Origin: Escherichia coli
GTDB lineage: Bacteria; Pseudomonadota; Gammaproteobacteria; Enterobacterales; Enterobacteriaceae
Length of the DNA: 64,000 nt
Strand: one strand, 5' to 3'
NCBI RefSeq assembly: GCF_003018255.1
Contig: NZ_CP027440.1
This document shows positions 39,295 to 47,231 of the stretch, piece after piece; the first letter of the stretch is position 1, and every line of letters begins with the position of its first letter. The notes beneath the pieces are model-generated. The model had not been told where the DNA came from. It saw nothing but the letters and a program-made list of their open reading frames with translations, and made no database searches. Made by a program: the position numbers and the translations under genes.

Positions 39295-40884
39295 CTATTC
39301 GCGCAGCAACTTCAGCCACGGATTATTCACCGGCACTTTCTCCCCCAACACCTGCTTCGGATCTTCCATCAGAAACCCTTTCAACTGACTACTTTTCTTT
39401 TGTGGAACCCGAACCTCGCAGATCCAGATAAAACTGTCATCATTACAGCGCAGGGCCAGCCCTGACTCCTGAAACATTCGTTGCGCCAGTTTCCAGCCGT
39501 CGCCGCTATCGCCTGTGGTTTCTGCTGCGTATGTTTTAAAGATCCCCGGCGAAATCAAGAAAAGATGGTTTTCCACCACATGTACCTTGCCGTTCCGGGT
39601 ATTCACCGTGGCTGAAGGACTAGTGTGGTTCTTCAGCCACTGCAGGAAATTGTTATTGTCACCAAGCCTCGGATCGTCTGCTATCTCCGGTAACGGTTGA
39701 GTCGGTGCGCTAAGTTCAGGAGCGGGTTCGGCTTCAATTACCGGCGTTACATCACCATCGAAACAGGCCGGACGTTGATCATCCTGCCCCCAGATTACAG
39801 ACGGCGTCAGGCGCAGTAGCGTCAGCGGTTCAACGGGCGACCAGCCTTTATCCGATCGGATAATGCAGCGCCAAATCGCTTTATCTTCGTTGGCAACAAT
39901 AAGCTGATGCGTCAGCAGTTCGTCAAACAGGCGGTTATTGTTTTCCGGCACGCTGGAAACTCCATGCTGGAGCAGCCAGGCGCGAACCCGGTCGGCGGTG
40001 GTTTTGCTGATAAGCCACAGCGCATCCTCCGTCAGCCAGCCATCGGATCCGCATTCGGGATTATTGAGCCGGTACTCGTTCTGTACCAGCGACCGCAAGG
40101 CTGTAAGAAGTTGCTGGGGGAAGGAAGAGGGCTTTTGCGCCAGCGCGGTTTTGATATCGCCGCCGAGGTATCGGGCGACAGAGGCTTTATCGGCCTGCTG
40201 CACCAGTTCAGCCAGTGCGCCAGACCGTTCGTAGTGTCCGGTGAGCTGGTAAATCAGGGACGCAAAAGCCGCCGGGTATCCGGCCAGCCAGTCCAGTAAT
40301 GGCGAGGGTATCAACTGATTAATCAGCATTGCGGTAGCCGCCGGATGCAGATGATAGTCGCGACCGTGGCTCTGGTACTGCCAGCGATAAGGCTGTGCCA
40401 GATAACCCTGCCACGAATGCCAGCGGGTGCCATCACGTTGATGAATCTCCATATCCACGGCGATTTTTCCCGTATCGTGCAGTAATGCCACGCAGACCAC
40501 TGCGACCGTCCATGCGCTGGCCTGCCGGGCCTGTTCTTCCGCGCCCGCTTCCGGTGGTAGCAGATAACCCTGGCGCAGTCGGATGGCGTTGCAGGCAACC
40601 TCCAGCGAATGATCCAGCAACCCGCCGGGAGTGGAATGGTGATGACTTTGTGAGGCGGGAAGCAGTTGTACCAACGCGGCGAAGCGATGAATCGCCGCGA
40701 GGATCCAGCTATCAAACAGGGTATCCGGCAGCGGGGTCAGTTGCCGTAACTGGTGCAAACAGGACTGGCGTAACGGCGTCGCCAGCAATTGTTCTGCGGA
40801 TTGTGGCGCAAACCAGCCCTCCGGCAGCGTAGCGTCTGGCGTAGGTGGCTGGCTCTGGGATGGTCTTTTTAGCCACTTCAGCAT
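39295..40884 (-). CDS. HD-domain protein, putative MobH-family conjugative relaxase (TraI-like)
   Basis: 529 aa; H...HD metal-binding pattern (LLDHSLEV...ALLHDTGK); neighbours are conjugative-element genes. Confidence 0.55.
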   Translation of the reverse strand: MLKWLKRPSQSQPPTPDATLPEGWFAPQSAEQLLATPLRQSCLHQLRQLTPLPDTLFDSWILAAIHRFAALVQLLPASQSHHHSTPGGLLDHSLEVACNAIRLRQGYLLPPEAGAEEQARQASAWTVAVVCVALLHDTGKIAVDMEIHQRDGTRWHSWQGYLAQPYRWQYQSHGRDYHLHPAATAMLINQLIPSPLLDWLAGYPAAFASLIYQLTGHYERSGALAELVQQADKASVARYLGGDIKTALAQKPSSFPQQLLTALRSLVQNEYRLNNPECGSDGWLTEDALWLISKTTADRVRAWLLQHGVSSVPENNNRLFDELLTHQLIVANEDKAIWRCIIRSDKGWSPVEPLTLLRLTPSVIWGQDDQRPACFDGDVTPVIEAEPAPELSAPTQPLPEIADDPRLGDNNNFLQWLKNHTSPSATVNTRNGKVHVVENHLFLISPGIFKTYAAETTGDSGDGWKLAQRMFQESGLALRCNDDSFIWICEVRVPQKKSSQLKGFLMEDPKQVLGEKVPVNNPWLKLLRE

Positions 40885-41057
40885 ATTTCCCCTTTCCGGG
40901 CAGGCCCCTTTGCCCTTGTCGCCCTTCCTTTGCAGTGTCTCCCTTTGGGCCTTTTACATTTTTATTAGTAAAAACGGTATGCTCTCATGTGTATATCTGG
41001 CGCTGTATTTCTGGCCGACGAGGCAAAGTGACCGACGTTTTGTCGGCCACTTTAATA

Positions 41058-41363
41058 CTACCACCAGGCATAAAACATCAGCCTGTCTCGCTCAAAATCA
41101 AACGTCTCCAGCGTCTCCTTCACCCAGAGAGTGACGGTGCGAACGTCTTTCCAGTAGTGTTCTCCATAATCGGTATAACCATAGAAAAAGCCGTCAATCG
41201 TCGGATAAACCGCGCCGCAGTTATCCGGCGTCAGGCTCTGCAGGTCGCTCAGAAGCGCCTGCAAATTTGCTTTGGTGACTTCTAACAGCACTTGGTTGCG
41301 CACCAGCCCAACGTGTTTATCCACCCATTTAAGCAGCGGATTCACCTTGCGGAAATAACCCAC
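41058..41363 (-). CDS. Hypothetical protein (101 aa)
   Basis: ORF between ArdC-like gene and relaxase-like gene, same strand. Confidence 0.4.
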   Translation of the reverse strand: MGYFRKVNPLLKWVDKHVGLVRNQVLLEVTKANLQALLSDLQSLTPDNCGAVYPTIDGFFYGYTDYGEHYWKDVRTVTLWVKETLETFDFERDRLMFYAWW

Positions 41364-44938: not shown

Positions 44939-46296
44939 CGCGGGCTGTCCGGCTGCGGGTTATTGAGGTTGTGCAGACGGCTGTCGCTGTCGTCCGGCAC
45001 CTCCACCACCTGTCCCTGAAGCTGGTCGCGCTGCTGTTTGCGTTGCAGGATCTGGCTGGCGGTATTGCGCGTCAGTGCCTGGCGGAAATCGAGTTCCAGC
45101 TTCAACTGGTTCAGCTCTTCATCCAGTTGGGCGGTGGTTTTGCCCAGGCTCTCCTGCGCCTCTTTGACGTTGGCGATATTGGGTTCACGCATACCTGCGA
45201 GCAGCGTACGCCGGGCCAGCAACGCCTGCTCGGTGACGCGGGCCAGCGCCAGTTCTCCCGCCAGCCGTTCGGTGAGGACGGCAACGTCCGGATCGTCGCG
45301 CAGCGCCTCGACCACGCCGCGGGTCAGTTGCATAGAACCGCCGGAAGCTTTCGCCAAATTGTCGAAGCCGGGTTTCTGACTGCCATTAACCAGATCTGTC
45401 AGGAGGGGCAGGATCTTCGCCTTTTCTTCGTCGATCAGCGGATGCAGGCCGATCCCCGCCTGCGCGCCGGAACGCGCATCCGGATCGTCGGTGACCTGCG
45501 CCACGCTGATGGTCTGCTCGCCAACGACGCGGGTCATCCACCCGGCGGCCTCTTCAGGGGATGTCCAGGTGCTACAAAGTTCCCCGTCGCATTCAGAGGA
45601 GCTAAGAGAAGTAGTGCTGGTGGCAGGCTGCTGGTTGAGGATATTCCATCCTGCGGCGGTGGCGTCATGGACTACCTTAATCGGCAGCTGGCCTTTGCCG
45701 CCGCGCTTTTCACCGCCCACCCAGCGTTTACCCTTTTCGGCGGCCTCTTTTGCCGCTTTCTGGTCGGTGCGGATGGCATCGTTATCGCTGGCGGCGAGGG
45801 ACTGGTAGTTCTCCGCTTTGGCTCCGGAAAACCAGGCGGAATCGGCCGCCAAATCGGTCATCTTCTCCGCCATTTTCTGGCAGTTCAGCAGAGACTTATC
45901 AAAATCCAGCCGCCCCTGCAGCACGCCGTTGGTCAGCAGATCATAAAGCTGCGGATTGGCGCGCTGGATAATCATCGCGGGCAGGCTGGCGACCGCCCCG
46001 GTGGCACTCTGGATAACGTTGCCCATCAGTTGCTGGAAGCCGTCGGTGATGCCGTTGAGCTGGTTGCGCACGGTGGTGTCGATGTCGAAATTGCCGCACA
46101 TCATATCGGCGTTCCAGCCAAGACCTAAGCTAAGCGGCGAGGGGCTACGGCGTACCGGAGGCGGCATGACCGCTTCACCGCCGCCAATCTGGTAGTAAAG
46201 CAGGTCGTCAACCGCGCCTCGCGTGCGGAAACTGTAGTCGTCTGCCGCCACGCAAACCCCGGCGAAAAACAATAAGACCAGGAAAAGGGCTCTCAT
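44935..46296 (-). CDS. Secreted conjugative-element protein (putative; resembles PFL_4711-type ICE proteins)
   Basis: Start trimmed to MRALFLVLLFFAGVCVA signal peptide with GGAGG RBS. Confidence 0.5.
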   Translation of the reverse strand: MRALFLVLLFFAGVCVAADDYSFRTRGAVDDLLYYQIGGGEAVMPPPVRRSPSPLSLGLGWNADMMCGNFDIDTTVRNQLNGITDGFQQLMGNVIQSATGAVASLPAMIIQRANPQLYDLLTNGVLQGRLDFDKSLLNCQKMAEKMTDLAADSAWFSGAKAENYQSLAASDNDAIRTDQKAAKEAAEKGKRWVGGEKRGGKGQLPIKVVHDATAAGWNILNQQPATSTTSLSSSECDGELCSTWTSPEEAAGWMTRVVGEQTISVAQVTDDPDARSGAQAGIGLHPLIDEEKAKILPLLTDLVNGSQKPGFDNLAKASGGSMQLTRGVVEALRDDPDVAVLTERLAGELALARVTEQALLARRTLLAGMREPNIANVKEAQESLGKTTAQLDEELNQLKLELDFRQALTRNTASQILQRKQQRDQLQGQVVEVPDDSDSRLHNLNNPQPDSPR

Positions 46297-46307
46297 CACC
46301 GCCTCCG

Positions 46308-47231
46308 TTAACCCGTACTGCCGAGAAAGGTTTGCCCCCGGCGCGGACAGCATTTATAGGGCCGCCACAGCGTCCAGGCGTACGCGCCATCCTCCGCCAG
46401 TTTGTTGGCGTAGGTGTCAGTGGCACTGCCATCCGGGAACACCGAACAGGCGGCGGATTTTTTCGGCGTGAGCATTTGCCAGCGATGGTTATCGCTGTCG
46501 CCTTCGATAACCGGGGAGGGCGGCCAGTACCCGGCGCGCGATGAGGCGGTCAGCGGCGTGTAGAGATGCGGTTGCCCGGTACGGGTCACCAGATCGGCCG
46601 CGCGCTGGGCGATAACGGCGGCGGCTTTATAGTCGTGCGTCTGGTTGATGGCTCCGGCTCGCGGGTAGATATTGCCCCACATATCGCCGTTCTGACCGAC
46701 TTCCCGCATGCCCGGCGTCAGCGCCTCCGGGTATGTCATTTCCGGCACACCGCTGCGCCACGCCAGCGTATCGGGTTGACTCAGAAAGTACGGTTGAAAA
46801 GGCTGCGATGAAGGTGAGCAGATATAGCCAAACTGGGTGAAAAATTTTGCCAGTTCATCACCCGCCGGGAAGCCGATGGCATCGGCATTCTTAAAGCGGA
46901 CCTTGCTGTGCTGGCTGGCAGAACGAGGATTCGTATCGCCGCCGCCTTCGGCAACACCGGGCAACGGTGGGCTGAGTAACGACATCTCCGCCCACGGATT
47001 CTGCCCGGTGTTGCTGTAAGCCGACACCACCAGATCCGGGCGGAAATGGCTGACCTTCACCGACGTGCGTACCGTACAGCCGAACGGCGTGCAGTACAGC
47101 CAGTAGCACAGGCCGACCACCCGGTATTTCACACAGTCCGGCGTAAGCGCAGAGGCTGCGATCTCCGGCGTAGTAATCGCCCTGAGGGGGAAAGCAGCGC
47201 ACAGCAGCAGAAGGATGTATTGGGCTCGCAT
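46308..47231 (-). CDS. Secreted Cys-rich conjugative-element protein (putative; TraU/PFL_4710-like)
   Basis: 307 aa with signal peptide MRAQYILLLLCAAFPLRA and multiple conserved Cys. Confidence 0.5.
   Translation of the reverse strand: MRAQYILLLLCAAFPLRAITTPEIAASALTPDCVKYRVVGLCYWLYCTPFGCTVRTSVKVSHFRPDLVVSAYSNTGQNPWAEMSLLSPPLPGVAEGGGDTNPRSASQHSKVRFKNADAIGFPAGDELAKFFTQFGYICSPSSQPFQPYFLSQPDTLAWRSGVPEMTYPEALTPGMREVGQNGDMWGNIYPRAGAINQTHDYKAAAVIAQRAADLVTRTGQPHLYTPLTASSRAGYWPPSPVIEGDSDNHRWQMLTPKKSAACSVFPDGSATDTYANKLAEDGAYAWTLWRPYKCCPRRGQTFLGSTG

Follow-up and report, generated by a model that had tools for sequence, protein, structure and literature searches.

The transfer genes beside leuX in Escherichia coli probably belong to a near-complete integrative conjugative element of the ICEclc family

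Within a 64,000-nucleotide stretch of Escherichia coli DNA (hereafter the window), the gene cluster at 39295-47231 very probably represents the transfer segment nearest the integrase in a near-complete integrative conjugative element (ICE) of about 60 kb, inserted in the 3' end of leuX and related to the ICEclc / PFGI-1 / pKLC102-PAGI-2 family (MOB_H, MPF-G); we assign this reading a probability of about 0.88. An earlier note on this DNA had called the cluster a remnant, a label that is not supported, since the window end is closely followed by the rest of the mating-pair apparatus, the coupling protein TraD, a putative regulatory module and an attR-like repeat. This sequence to the right of position 64000 was read from E. 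coli JNE112863, a near-identical genome used as a proxy, with 7 differences from the window across 31 kb of the element. The correction from remnant to near-complete element is an ordinary finding in a well-known family, of little import beyond annotation.

Seven minus-strand genes make up the cluster (Table 1; ORF coordinates confirmed), encoding a MobH relaxase, an ArdC-family protein, two small proteins of no known family and three type IV secretion proteins. All five identifiable products match family models, with MobH, TIGR03755 and TIGR03756 far above NCBIfam cut-offs (188 bits is the curated value for TIGR03756) and the ArdC and TraG_N proteins above those of Pfam. Searches with family models confirmed the genes described from the sequence, and the interpretation drawn from them is supported in part. 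The HD-domain relaxase-like protein is a true MobH relaxase rather than some other HD hydrolase, scoring 327.7 bits against NF041494 MobH (cut-off 200), 243.9 bits against TIGR03760 (cut-off 161.4), and 292.8 and 83.8 bits against Pfam TraI_2 and TraI_2_C; it carries HHH (3H) at residues 81-83 and HD..K at residues 136-140, motifs that have been defined for the MOB_H family (PMC6736028). The suggested ArdC-like antirestriction protein matches ArdcN (114.7 bits) and MPTase-PolyVal (141.1 bits), combining ssDNA binding at the N terminus with a zincin metalloprotease domain whose HExxH motif reads HELTH at residue 204. The three proteins described as secretion-associated likewise received the TraG_N, TIGR03755 and TIGR03756/TraU assignments.

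Table 1 Features of the leuX element in the window.
Feature	Coordinates	Strand	Matches and remarks
tRNA-Leu(CAA) leuX	32590..32674	+	ARAGORN
Tyrosine integrase, 558 aa	32897..34573	+	Pfam Arm-DNA-bind_3, Phage_int_M, Phage_integrase
Cargo hotspot 1	34757..39239	+	AbiEi/AbiEii toxin-antitoxin pair, two HTH proteins, 88-aa unknown, HNH endonuclease
MobH (MOB_H) relaxase, PFGI-1 class, 529 aa	39295..40884	-	NF041494, TIGR03760, TraI_2 + TraI_2_C
Conserved 123-aa protein, no known family	41058..41429	-	Counterpart in K. pneumoniae
ArdC-family protein, 301 aa	41496..42401	-	ArdcN + MPTase-PolyVal
Conserved 96-aa protein, no known family	42467..42757	-	No family match
GlgS homologue, 66 aa, element-borne	43091..43291	+	Pfam GlgS 91.3 bits
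TraG_N inner-membrane secretion-system protein, 500 aa, VirB6-like	43436..44938	-	Pfam TraG_N 230.7 bits
TIGR03755 periplasmic secretion-system protein, 453 aa, signal peptide	44935..46296	-	TIGR03755 508 bits (cut-off 270)
TIGR03756 / TraU-like protein, 307 aa, signal peptide	46308..47231	-	TIGR03756 397.7 bits, Pfam TraU 200.5 bits
Cargo hotspot 2, 15.7 kb	47232..62947		Splits secretion-system genes
Hotspot 2: FimB/E-like invertase	47444-48034		
Hotspot 2: chaperone-usher fimbrial operon	48402-54203		
Hotspot 2: serine recombinase	54227-55762		
Hotspot 2: two ParB/RepB-like genes	55762-57541		
Hotspot 2: creatininase, permease, PTS-IIA genes	58302-60847		
Hotspot 2: three HTH genes	61066-61976		
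Hotspot 2: 306-aa unknown protein	61979-62899		
VirB4-type conjugative ATPase (TIGR03744), C-terminal 350 aa	62948..64000	-	Gene continues to window-equivalent 65590

The finer arrangement departs from the earlier description, which had all genes on the minus strand and a single small protein: the GlgS homologue lies on the plus strand, and two small genes are present. One of two reported ATGA-type overlaps stands (44935-44938, between the TIGR03755 gene and traG_N), and the other falls away, as the TIGR03755 gene most likely starts at 46296, preceded by GGAGG and 11 nt past the TIGR03756 stop. Upstream of TIGR03756, promoter signals did not exceed chance. The first ~20 codons of the 123-aa gene beside mobH are out of frame in the window, owing to an A9 run at about 41384-41392 that is A8 in RefSeq, and this frameshift may be a homopolymer sequencing error; the protein has no match in Pfam or NCBIfam, and K. 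pneumoniae encodes a 123-aa protein at the same position. The GlgS homologue, which also occurs in K. pneumoniae copies of the element, is 100% identical in strain E189 while its flanking genes are 92-97% identical, and a terminator scan placed a terminator-like hairpin on its 3' side, at 43301-43322.

The element spans about 60 kb, from leuX on the integrase side to a degenerate leuX repeat. Its attL core repeat is the last 21 nt of leuX (32654-32674, CGAGTCCGGCCTTCGGCACCA), and extending the analysis past the window end in JNE112863, toward a leuX 3' repeat anticipated by the earlier note, recovered both the rest of the type IV secretion system and an imperfect, attR-like copy of the repeat ~59.9 kb rightward. 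This copy, 15 nt plus CACCA, differs from the Klebsiella form by a 7-nt duplication, and its flanking arm is conserved in Klebsiella. The integrase combines a P4-type core, in which the Phage_integrase match extends to profile position 170 of 172, with a ~140-aa C-terminal extension without a family match. Since a length of 557-564 aa is kept in more than 80 homologues (80-99% identity) across Enterobacterales, the RefSeq pseudogene flag on this gene is doubtful.

The supposed VirB4-like ATPase fragment is an intact protein cut by the window end, with 880 aa in JNE112863 (TIGR03744, 1340 bits, profile positions 6-887 of 892). The mating-pair apparatus is indeed interrupted, as its backbone is split by cargo, but the remaining components follow directly past the window end in JNE112863: homologues of TIGR03751, 03752, 03749, 03746, 03750, 03745, 03758, RAQPRD, 03759 and PilL all pass their curated cut-offs, with matches that cover almost the whole profile. 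A full-length TraD coupling protein (TIGR03754, 1013 bits) is likewise encoded in this genome. The position of the regulatory module is occupied in JNE112863 by a TIGR03764 ParB (286 bits), with DUF2857 and AlpA present according to annotation and Pfam matches in relatives, and a 296-aa protein without domains lies at the position of bisR. Several observations count against the reading as a near-complete element: a TIGR03747 homologue scoring below its cut-off (127.4 vs 138.5 bits), an internal stop codon in topoisomerase III in the near-identical RefSeq genome, the duplication in attR, the frameshift in the 123-aa gene, the decay of other E. coli copies and the behaviour of ICEKp2 (see below), and several missing genes. 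No TIGR03757 (DUF1525) homologue was found anywhere in the element, nor were parA-shi, RadC, DsbA, DUF2859 or an oriT candidate.

Cargo occupies two hotspots. The first holds Fic/GNAT genes in strain E189 in place of the contents seen here, and its AbiE block is 99-100% identical to that of strain C11 against 88-94% for the backbone. The second lies where ICEclc and three related loci (L010, L013 and L015) carry DUF1525 (TIGR03757), RadC and DsbA; TIGR03757 sits directly upstream of TIGR03756 in L010 and L015 (HMM) and in L013 (tblastn). The gap between the ATPase and TIGR03756 genes measures only 2.1-3.7 kb in ICEclc and these relatives, which confirms the earlier proposal that ~15 kb of inserted cargo split the ICE backbone. 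The fimbrial block of this hotspot has the same distribution as the element itself, being present in its 43 carrier genomes and in no others.

These carriers were found among 5,426 complete E. coli genomes, and all 43 copies lie at leuX with the same fimbrial cargo. Klebsiella copies share 91-96% nucleotide identity with the window, and the K. pneumoniae loci in particular 92-96%. Identities of 91-99% for the integrase, ParB and backbone DNA extend across Klebsiella, Enterobacter, Citrobacter and Salmonella, from which we infer recent transfer between genera. Some copies are decaying, such as those of E. coli C11 (truncated ATPase) and E189 (frameshifted integrase, truncated ParB). True remnants of the lineage, in which mobH is cut to 219 aa beside attR, exist at K. 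pneumoniae loci L024 and L026, and these look quite different from the leuX element.

That the cluster is itself such a remnant, with the relaxase, ArdC and three secretion-system genes left as non-functional debris after loss of most of the mating apparatus, would suit the view from the 64-kb window, where no more than three secretion-system genes and a partial ATPase gene are visible, and would have precedents in the K. pneumoniae remnants and in GI-leuX of Salmonella Virchow. We consider it very improbable given the complete MPF-G set, coupling protein and putative regulatory module directly after the window end in the near-identical genome, and the full-length family matches, without stops, of the identifiable cluster genes. 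An integrated MOB_H conjugative plasmid, or an SXT/R391- or IncA/C-type element, is less probable still. MOB_H relaxases and TraD proteins of the SXT/TOL model do occur in such elements, and TIGR03743 SXT_TraD reaches 842.8 bits here; the best models are nevertheless of the PFGI-1 class (TIGR03754 at 1013 bits, with TIGR03760, 03744, 03764 and 03745-03759), the integrase is tRNA-adjacent with flanking repeats, and the element has no match among 72,556 plasmids.

A far more serious contender, to which we give slightly less than even odds, is that the gene set is complete and yet immobilised, inherited vertically and kept for its fimbrial and defence cargo while small lesions or the splitting of the operon block excision or transfer. 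The topB stop codon, the imperfect attR and the frameshift in the 123-aa gene, which together leave the transfer capacity of the element open, are consistent with this reading, as are the uniform site and cargo of the 43 E. coli copies, the decay of the C11 and E189 sister copies, the lack of a promoter signal above chance upstream of TIGR03756, and the failure of ICEKp2, with its similarly split secretion-system genes, to self-transfer (PMC6761156). Weighing against immobilisation, no homologue of an essential ICEclc gene is disrupted, the missing genes have little or no importance for transfer in ICEclc (PMC10018362), the length and catalytic region of the integrase are conserved, and recent movement of the lineage between genera is clear. 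The further step of regarding the near-complete element as an active, uncharacterised cross-genus ICEclc-type lineage of Enterobacterales is tentative, and we judge it rather unlikely: such a lineage would be streamlined (without ParA-Shi; only one of four thioredoxin-like helpers), would tolerate large cargo inside its secretion-system array, and would spread fimbriae, variable defence systems and a GlgS surface-regulator paralogue among E. coli, Klebsiella, Enterobacter, Citrobacter and Salmonella.

Judged by its homology to ICEclc, transfer of the near-complete element would begin when the putative far-end AlpA-ParB(BisD-like)-DUF2857(BisC-like) module turns on competence, after which the 558-aa integrase would cut the element out at the leuX repeat and attR, MobH would nick a putative oriT, and TraD would hand the strand to the secretion system, of which TraG_N (VirB6-like, inner membrane), TIGR03755 and the TraU-like protein would be essential structural or assembly parts. 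ArdC may then shield the incoming single strand against restriction in the recipient. The 15.7-kb fimbrial and metabolic cargo separates the TraU-like gene from the ATPase, at a permissive point where other members have three accessory genes. The analysis establishes gene identities, a complete gene set, gene order, the limits of the element and its occurrence across genera; the functional steps and the present mobility of this copy are inferred. If active, the element would be a vehicle that moves fimbrial, metabolic and anti-phage defence genes between Enterobacterales of clinical relevance, as well as a natural test of which accessory genes are dispensable in an ICEclc-type secretion system.

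Matches to PFGI-1-class models (TIGR03760, 03744, 03754, 03764 and 03745-03759) uphold the resemblance to PAPI-1/pKLC102-type elements noted earlier. PAPI-like enterobacterial elements of the same family and hosts include ICEEc2 (E. coli BEN374) and ICEKp2 (K. pneumoniae HS11286), which integrate at tRNA-Phe (pheU/pheV) and not at leuX. In ICEKp2, as here, secretion-system genes are divided between loci, and that element excised without detectable self-transfer (PMC6761156). Outside the 43 carriers, E. coli genomes share no stretch of the cluster beyond 59 bp of ArdC (megablast), so that the lineage is distinct from ICEEc2 and ICEKp2. GI-leuX of S. Virchow SVQ1, to which the type IV secretion regions of K. 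pneumoniae 1084 and NTUH-K2044 are related, is by description degraded to a 22-kb remnant in which traD is frameshifted, in contrast to the full gene set found here.

The model of the family is ICEclc of Pseudomonas knackmussii B13, grouped with PFGI-1, PAPI-1, pKLC102/PAGI-2, SPI-7 and ICEHin1056 (MPF-G, MOB_H). Both ICEclc and the leuX element have a MobH/TraI relaxase near the integrase end, TraD as coupling protein, topoisomerase III and integration at a tRNA gene, and the alpA-bisD(parB)-bisC(DUF2857) module has a probable counterpart in the leuX element. The order of secretion-system genes from TraG_N to PilL is the same (PMC10018362, Table 1) once the two cargo insertions and the lost accessory genes are set aside. 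The leuX element differs in integrating at leuX through a 558-aa integrase, in lacking parA-shi and the four accessory genes named above, in the cargo between iceU and iceB4, and in the four genes (ArdC, GlgS and the two small ones) that separate traG_N from the relaxase; its proteins share only 38-54% identity with those of betaproteobacterial relatives, used as proxies. TraG_N, TIGR03755 and TIGR03756 correspond to Orf53587, Orf55476 and IceU, and deleting any of these essential genes in ICEclc cuts transfer more than 100-fold, whereas loss of DUF1525 costs only 4-fold and that of RadC or DsbA has no effect (PMC10018362). The insertion at hotspot 2 sits exactly where ICEclc genetics predicts that one would be tolerated, the genes at that site being dispensable or nearly so, and all ICEclc genes with a demonstrated essential role in transfer have intact homologues in the leuX element.

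The earlier note read the transfer genes as a remnant, but in gene content the element is not one: every ICEclc gene scored as essential has an intact counterpart, with JNE112863, a near-identical E. coli genome, serving as proxy past position 64000. Curated family models matched five of the seven minus-strand ORFs in the transfer-gene cluster, and a search with ICE-specific models, suggested at the outset, returned TIGR03760, TIGR03755 and TIGR03756. The 529-aa relaxase scored 327.7 bits against NF041494 (cut-off 200) and 243.9 bits against TIGR03760 ("ICE relaxase, PFGI-1 class"), contains Pfam TraI_2 and TraI_2_C, and carries HHH at residues 81-83 and HD..K at 136-140, HHH and HD being the defining motif pair of the MobH-family relaxase domain (PMC6736028). 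These matches and both motifs establish a genuine MobH and rule out an unrelated HD hydrolase. Among the secretion-system proteins, TraG_N scored 230.7 bits, TIGR03755 508 bits and TIGR03756/TraU 397.7 bits, while the 301-aa ArdC combines ArdcN and zincin MPTase-PolyVal domains, with HELTH at residue 204. The cluster had also been described as entirely minus-strand, with two ATGA overlaps and one small protein; the seven ORFs do share that strand, but a GlgS homologue between the ArdC block and traG_N lies on the other, a single overlap is real, and the small unknown genes number two.

Positions of features in and around the element (window coordinates unless a record is named)
Feature	Position	Strand	Remarks
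Dense-SNP patch, mgtA	9000-11000		about 39 differences from JNE112863
Dense-SNP patch, lptG/yjgR/ahr	28000-32200		about 3.6% from JNE112863; ends ~400 bp before leuX
leuX	32590-32674		followed by the integrase
Tyrosine integrase	32897-34573	+	558 aa
Transfer-gene cluster	39295-47231	-	seven ORFs
123-aa gene	41058-41429	-	frameshifted in the window
A9 run	41384-41392		A8 in both near-identical RefSeq genomes
GlgS homologue	43091-43291	+	66 aa; Pfam 91 bits
Site without SBD-HNH gene	43329-43400		corresponds to 24018-24952 of L004 (E189 locus)
ATGA overlap	44935-44938
Weak sigma-70-like match	47389-47362		upstream of TIGR03756
Invertase and ~290-bp segment	47444-48401		FimB/E-like tyrosine invertase
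Inverted repeats	48018-48031 / 48306-48319		13/14 nt
Inverted repeats	48003-48011 / 48337-48345
Serine recombinase block	54227-57541	+	41-44% GC
306-aa protein gene	61979-62899	-	directly downstream of ATPase
296-aa protein gene	L002 (JNE112863 segment) 4599-5489; record 4636598-4637488		outside the window
Imperfect leuX 3'-end copy (attR)	JNE112863 record 4645056		about 59.9 kb from leuX

GlgS is a cell-surface composition regulator, and the element-borne copy might help to ready the surface of the host for mating. It is 100% identical in strain E189, where neighbouring genes are 92-97% identical, and is also carried by the K. pneumoniae copies. Beside it, the window variant lacks a ~870-bp ScoMcrA-like SBD-HNH gene ("phosphorothioated DNA-binding restriction endonuclease"), which is found between glgS and traG_N in 41 other E. 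coli copies and in the K. pneumoniae copies; a fragment of a similar gene lies just outside attR, adjoining nanS. A search for inverted repeats in the intergenic DNA flanking mobH gave no convincing oriT, and sigma-70-like matches upstream of TIGR03756, including one weak site, were no more numerous than in shuffled sequence. The 123-aa, 96-aa, 306-aa and 296-aa proteins and the C-terminal extension of the integrase had zero matches in Pfam, NCBIfam and PADLOC.

In a near-identical genome, the remaining T4SS genes lie past the window end. Two Japanese E. coli genomes, both complete (JNE23-011 and JNE112863), match the window at essentially 100%, and since the element differs from JNE112863 at only 7 positions in 31 kb (the chromosome in two short patches only), we took the latter as proxy for the rest. 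There, what had been called a VirB4 fragment proves to be the end of an intact ATPase of 880 aa (TIGR03744, 1340 bits, profile positions 6-887 of 892), followed in order by TIGR03751, 03752, 03749, 03746, 03750, 03745, 03758 and RAQPRD; a small cargo block, TIGR03747/DUF4400, TraD (TIGR03754, 1013 bits) and a lytic transglycosylase; TIGR03759 and PilL2; an STY4534 protein, topoisomerase III (with an internal stop), DUF3158, PFL_4669/AcaB, STY4528 and DUF2857; and lastly TIGR03764 ParB, AlpA and a 296-aa protein without recognisable domain. Of the secretion-system proteins in this region, ten were scored for this analysis and all exceeded curated cut-offs. The 296-aa gene holds the bisR position, upstream of alpA-parB(bisD)-DUF2857(bisC), and every relative keeps it at this end of the backbone; its product is a candidate counterpart of BisR. 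Its N-terminus appears HTH-like by eye.

Both ends of the element could be placed. The leuX 3' direct repeat, proposed as the island's right boundary, was located in JNE112863 as an imperfect copy, CGAGTCCGGCCTTCG[ACCTTCG]CACCA, the attR repeat of the K. pneumoniae copies being CGAGTCCGGCCTTCGCACCA. Sequence just inside the imperfect repeat is conserved with the attR arm of those copies, and this repeat is therefore the element's true right boundary. An NsnABC-like defence system and a type II restriction-modification system with Vsr fill the space from the 296-aa gene to attR, a position occupied by Dnd, Dpd or GmrSD systems in relatives from other genera. At the left end, one RefSeq record marks the integrase as a pseudogene, and it is annotated as intact in strain C11; we rejected the pseudogene reading on the basis of its full-length ORF, its cross-genus length and the alignment of its catalytic domain to the end of the Pfam profile. 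A length of 557-564 aa is shared by more than 80 homologues (80-99% identity) from Klebsiella, Enterobacter, Citrobacter, Salmonella, Edwardsiella and Pectobacterium. Residues ~420-558 form a conserved C-terminal extension of ~140 aa; distant homologues (<=68% identity) reach 414-424 aa only, and the longer form is kept across many Enterobacterales genera.

The suggestion that the backbone was split by ~15 kb of cargo is borne out, as 15.7 kb separates the ATPase from TIGR03756 here, compared to 2.1-3.7 kb in Lelliottia (L010), Acidovorax (L013) and Cognatazoarcus (L015). The corresponding ICEclc genes run TraG_N, a small ORF, TIGR03755, IceU (TraU-like), DUF1525, RadC, DsbA and IceB4 (VirB4) (PMC10018362, Table 1). 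Immediately upstream of TIGR03756, a TIGR03757 gene was detected by HMM in L010 and L015 and by tblastn in L013, with RadC also seen in L015; a TIGR03757 homologue is absent from the whole element. Deletion of TraG_N, TIGR03755 or IceU lowers ICEclc transfer >100-fold, while loss of DUF1525 costs 4-fold and loss of RadC or DsbA nothing (PMC10018362), and these last data indicate that the gap position is permissive. Since Salmonella, Citrobacter and Buttiauxella relatives (TraU identity 77-79%) likewise have no ATPase within 10 kb upstream, this junction appears to be a cargo hotspot of the enterobacterial branch as a whole.

Within the cargo itself, inverted repeats bracket a ~290-bp segment that comes after an invertase gene. 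A promoter-like site in this segment faces away from the fimbrial genes and is suggestive of a fimS-like switch set to OFF; inversion was not seen, with one orientation in all full-length copies (42/43 assemblies). A large serine recombinase and two ParB/RepB-like genes form a low-GC block that is 99-100% identical between element variants diverging 6-12% elsewhere, and could be a small mobile module of its own, lodged within the element. Next to the ATPase, a 306-aa cytoplasmic protein, 98.7% identical in E189, is encoded in a low-GC stretch.

A complete gene set may nevertheless be immobilised in this strain, an alternative to which we give slightly less than even odds. It is favoured by the stop codon in topB, the imperfect attR, the absence of three of four thioredoxin-like helper proteins, and decay in sister copies (a truncated ATPase in C11; a frameshifted integrase and truncated ParB in E189). 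ICEKp2, whose secretion-system genes are also split, excised with no detectable self-transfer (PMC6761156). The frameshift in the conserved 123-aa gene adjoining mobH, which hits its first ~20 codons, points the same way but is possibly artefactual: the A9 tract could be a sequencing error, or real and possibly phase-variable. The lack of parA and dnaB was rejected as a sign of decay, as relatives examined in other genera all share the hyp296-AlpA-ParB end followed by variable defence cargo. The absence of parA, shi and dnaB instead characterises the lineage as a whole. True remnants have another appearance: those in K. pneumoniae (L024, L026) retain nothing beyond the integrase, some cargo and a 219-aa stretch of MobH beside attR, and S. 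Virchow GI-leuX is a degraded 22-kb island (PMC4042001).

The cluster is found in 43 of 5,426 complete E. coli genomes, exactly those that carry the fimbrial cargo, and the leuX location was seen in all three copies inspected in detail (JNE112863, C11 and E189). No plasmid matched the cluster, and a plasmid origin was rejected accordingly. Identity to the window is complete in two copies and about 94% in the other 41, with divergence forming a mosaic (backbone 88-94%, cargo modules 97-100%). Klebsiella loci share 91-96% identity with the window in their backbone DNA, a closeness equal to that between the two E. coli variants, so the lineage has recently moved between genera. One metagenomic contig labelled "MAG: Bacillota bacterium" (L005, JAEWTL010000073.1) holds an E189-type E. 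coli element whose protein identities to the window match those of L004 gene for gene, and is almost certainly a mis-binned enterobacterial contig. The yjgR/ahr divergence, beside a near-identical element, had hinted at independent acquisition in another chromosomal background; this was rejected, since the rest of the 30-kb flank is near-identical to JNE112863, so the host is a close relative in which one patch has recombined locally. Both SNP patches look like local recombination tracts, one adjoining the island.

Nearly all of the element's proteins had already been named by the RefSeq pipeline, and the element belongs to the ICEclc/PFGI-1/PAPI-1 family, which is well studied. Its leuX-associated subgroup has already been noted as uncharacterised in the literature (PMC4042001). 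The named enterobacterial members ICEEc2 and ICEKp2 integrate at tRNA-Phe, whereas this element is distinct, being inserted at leuX.
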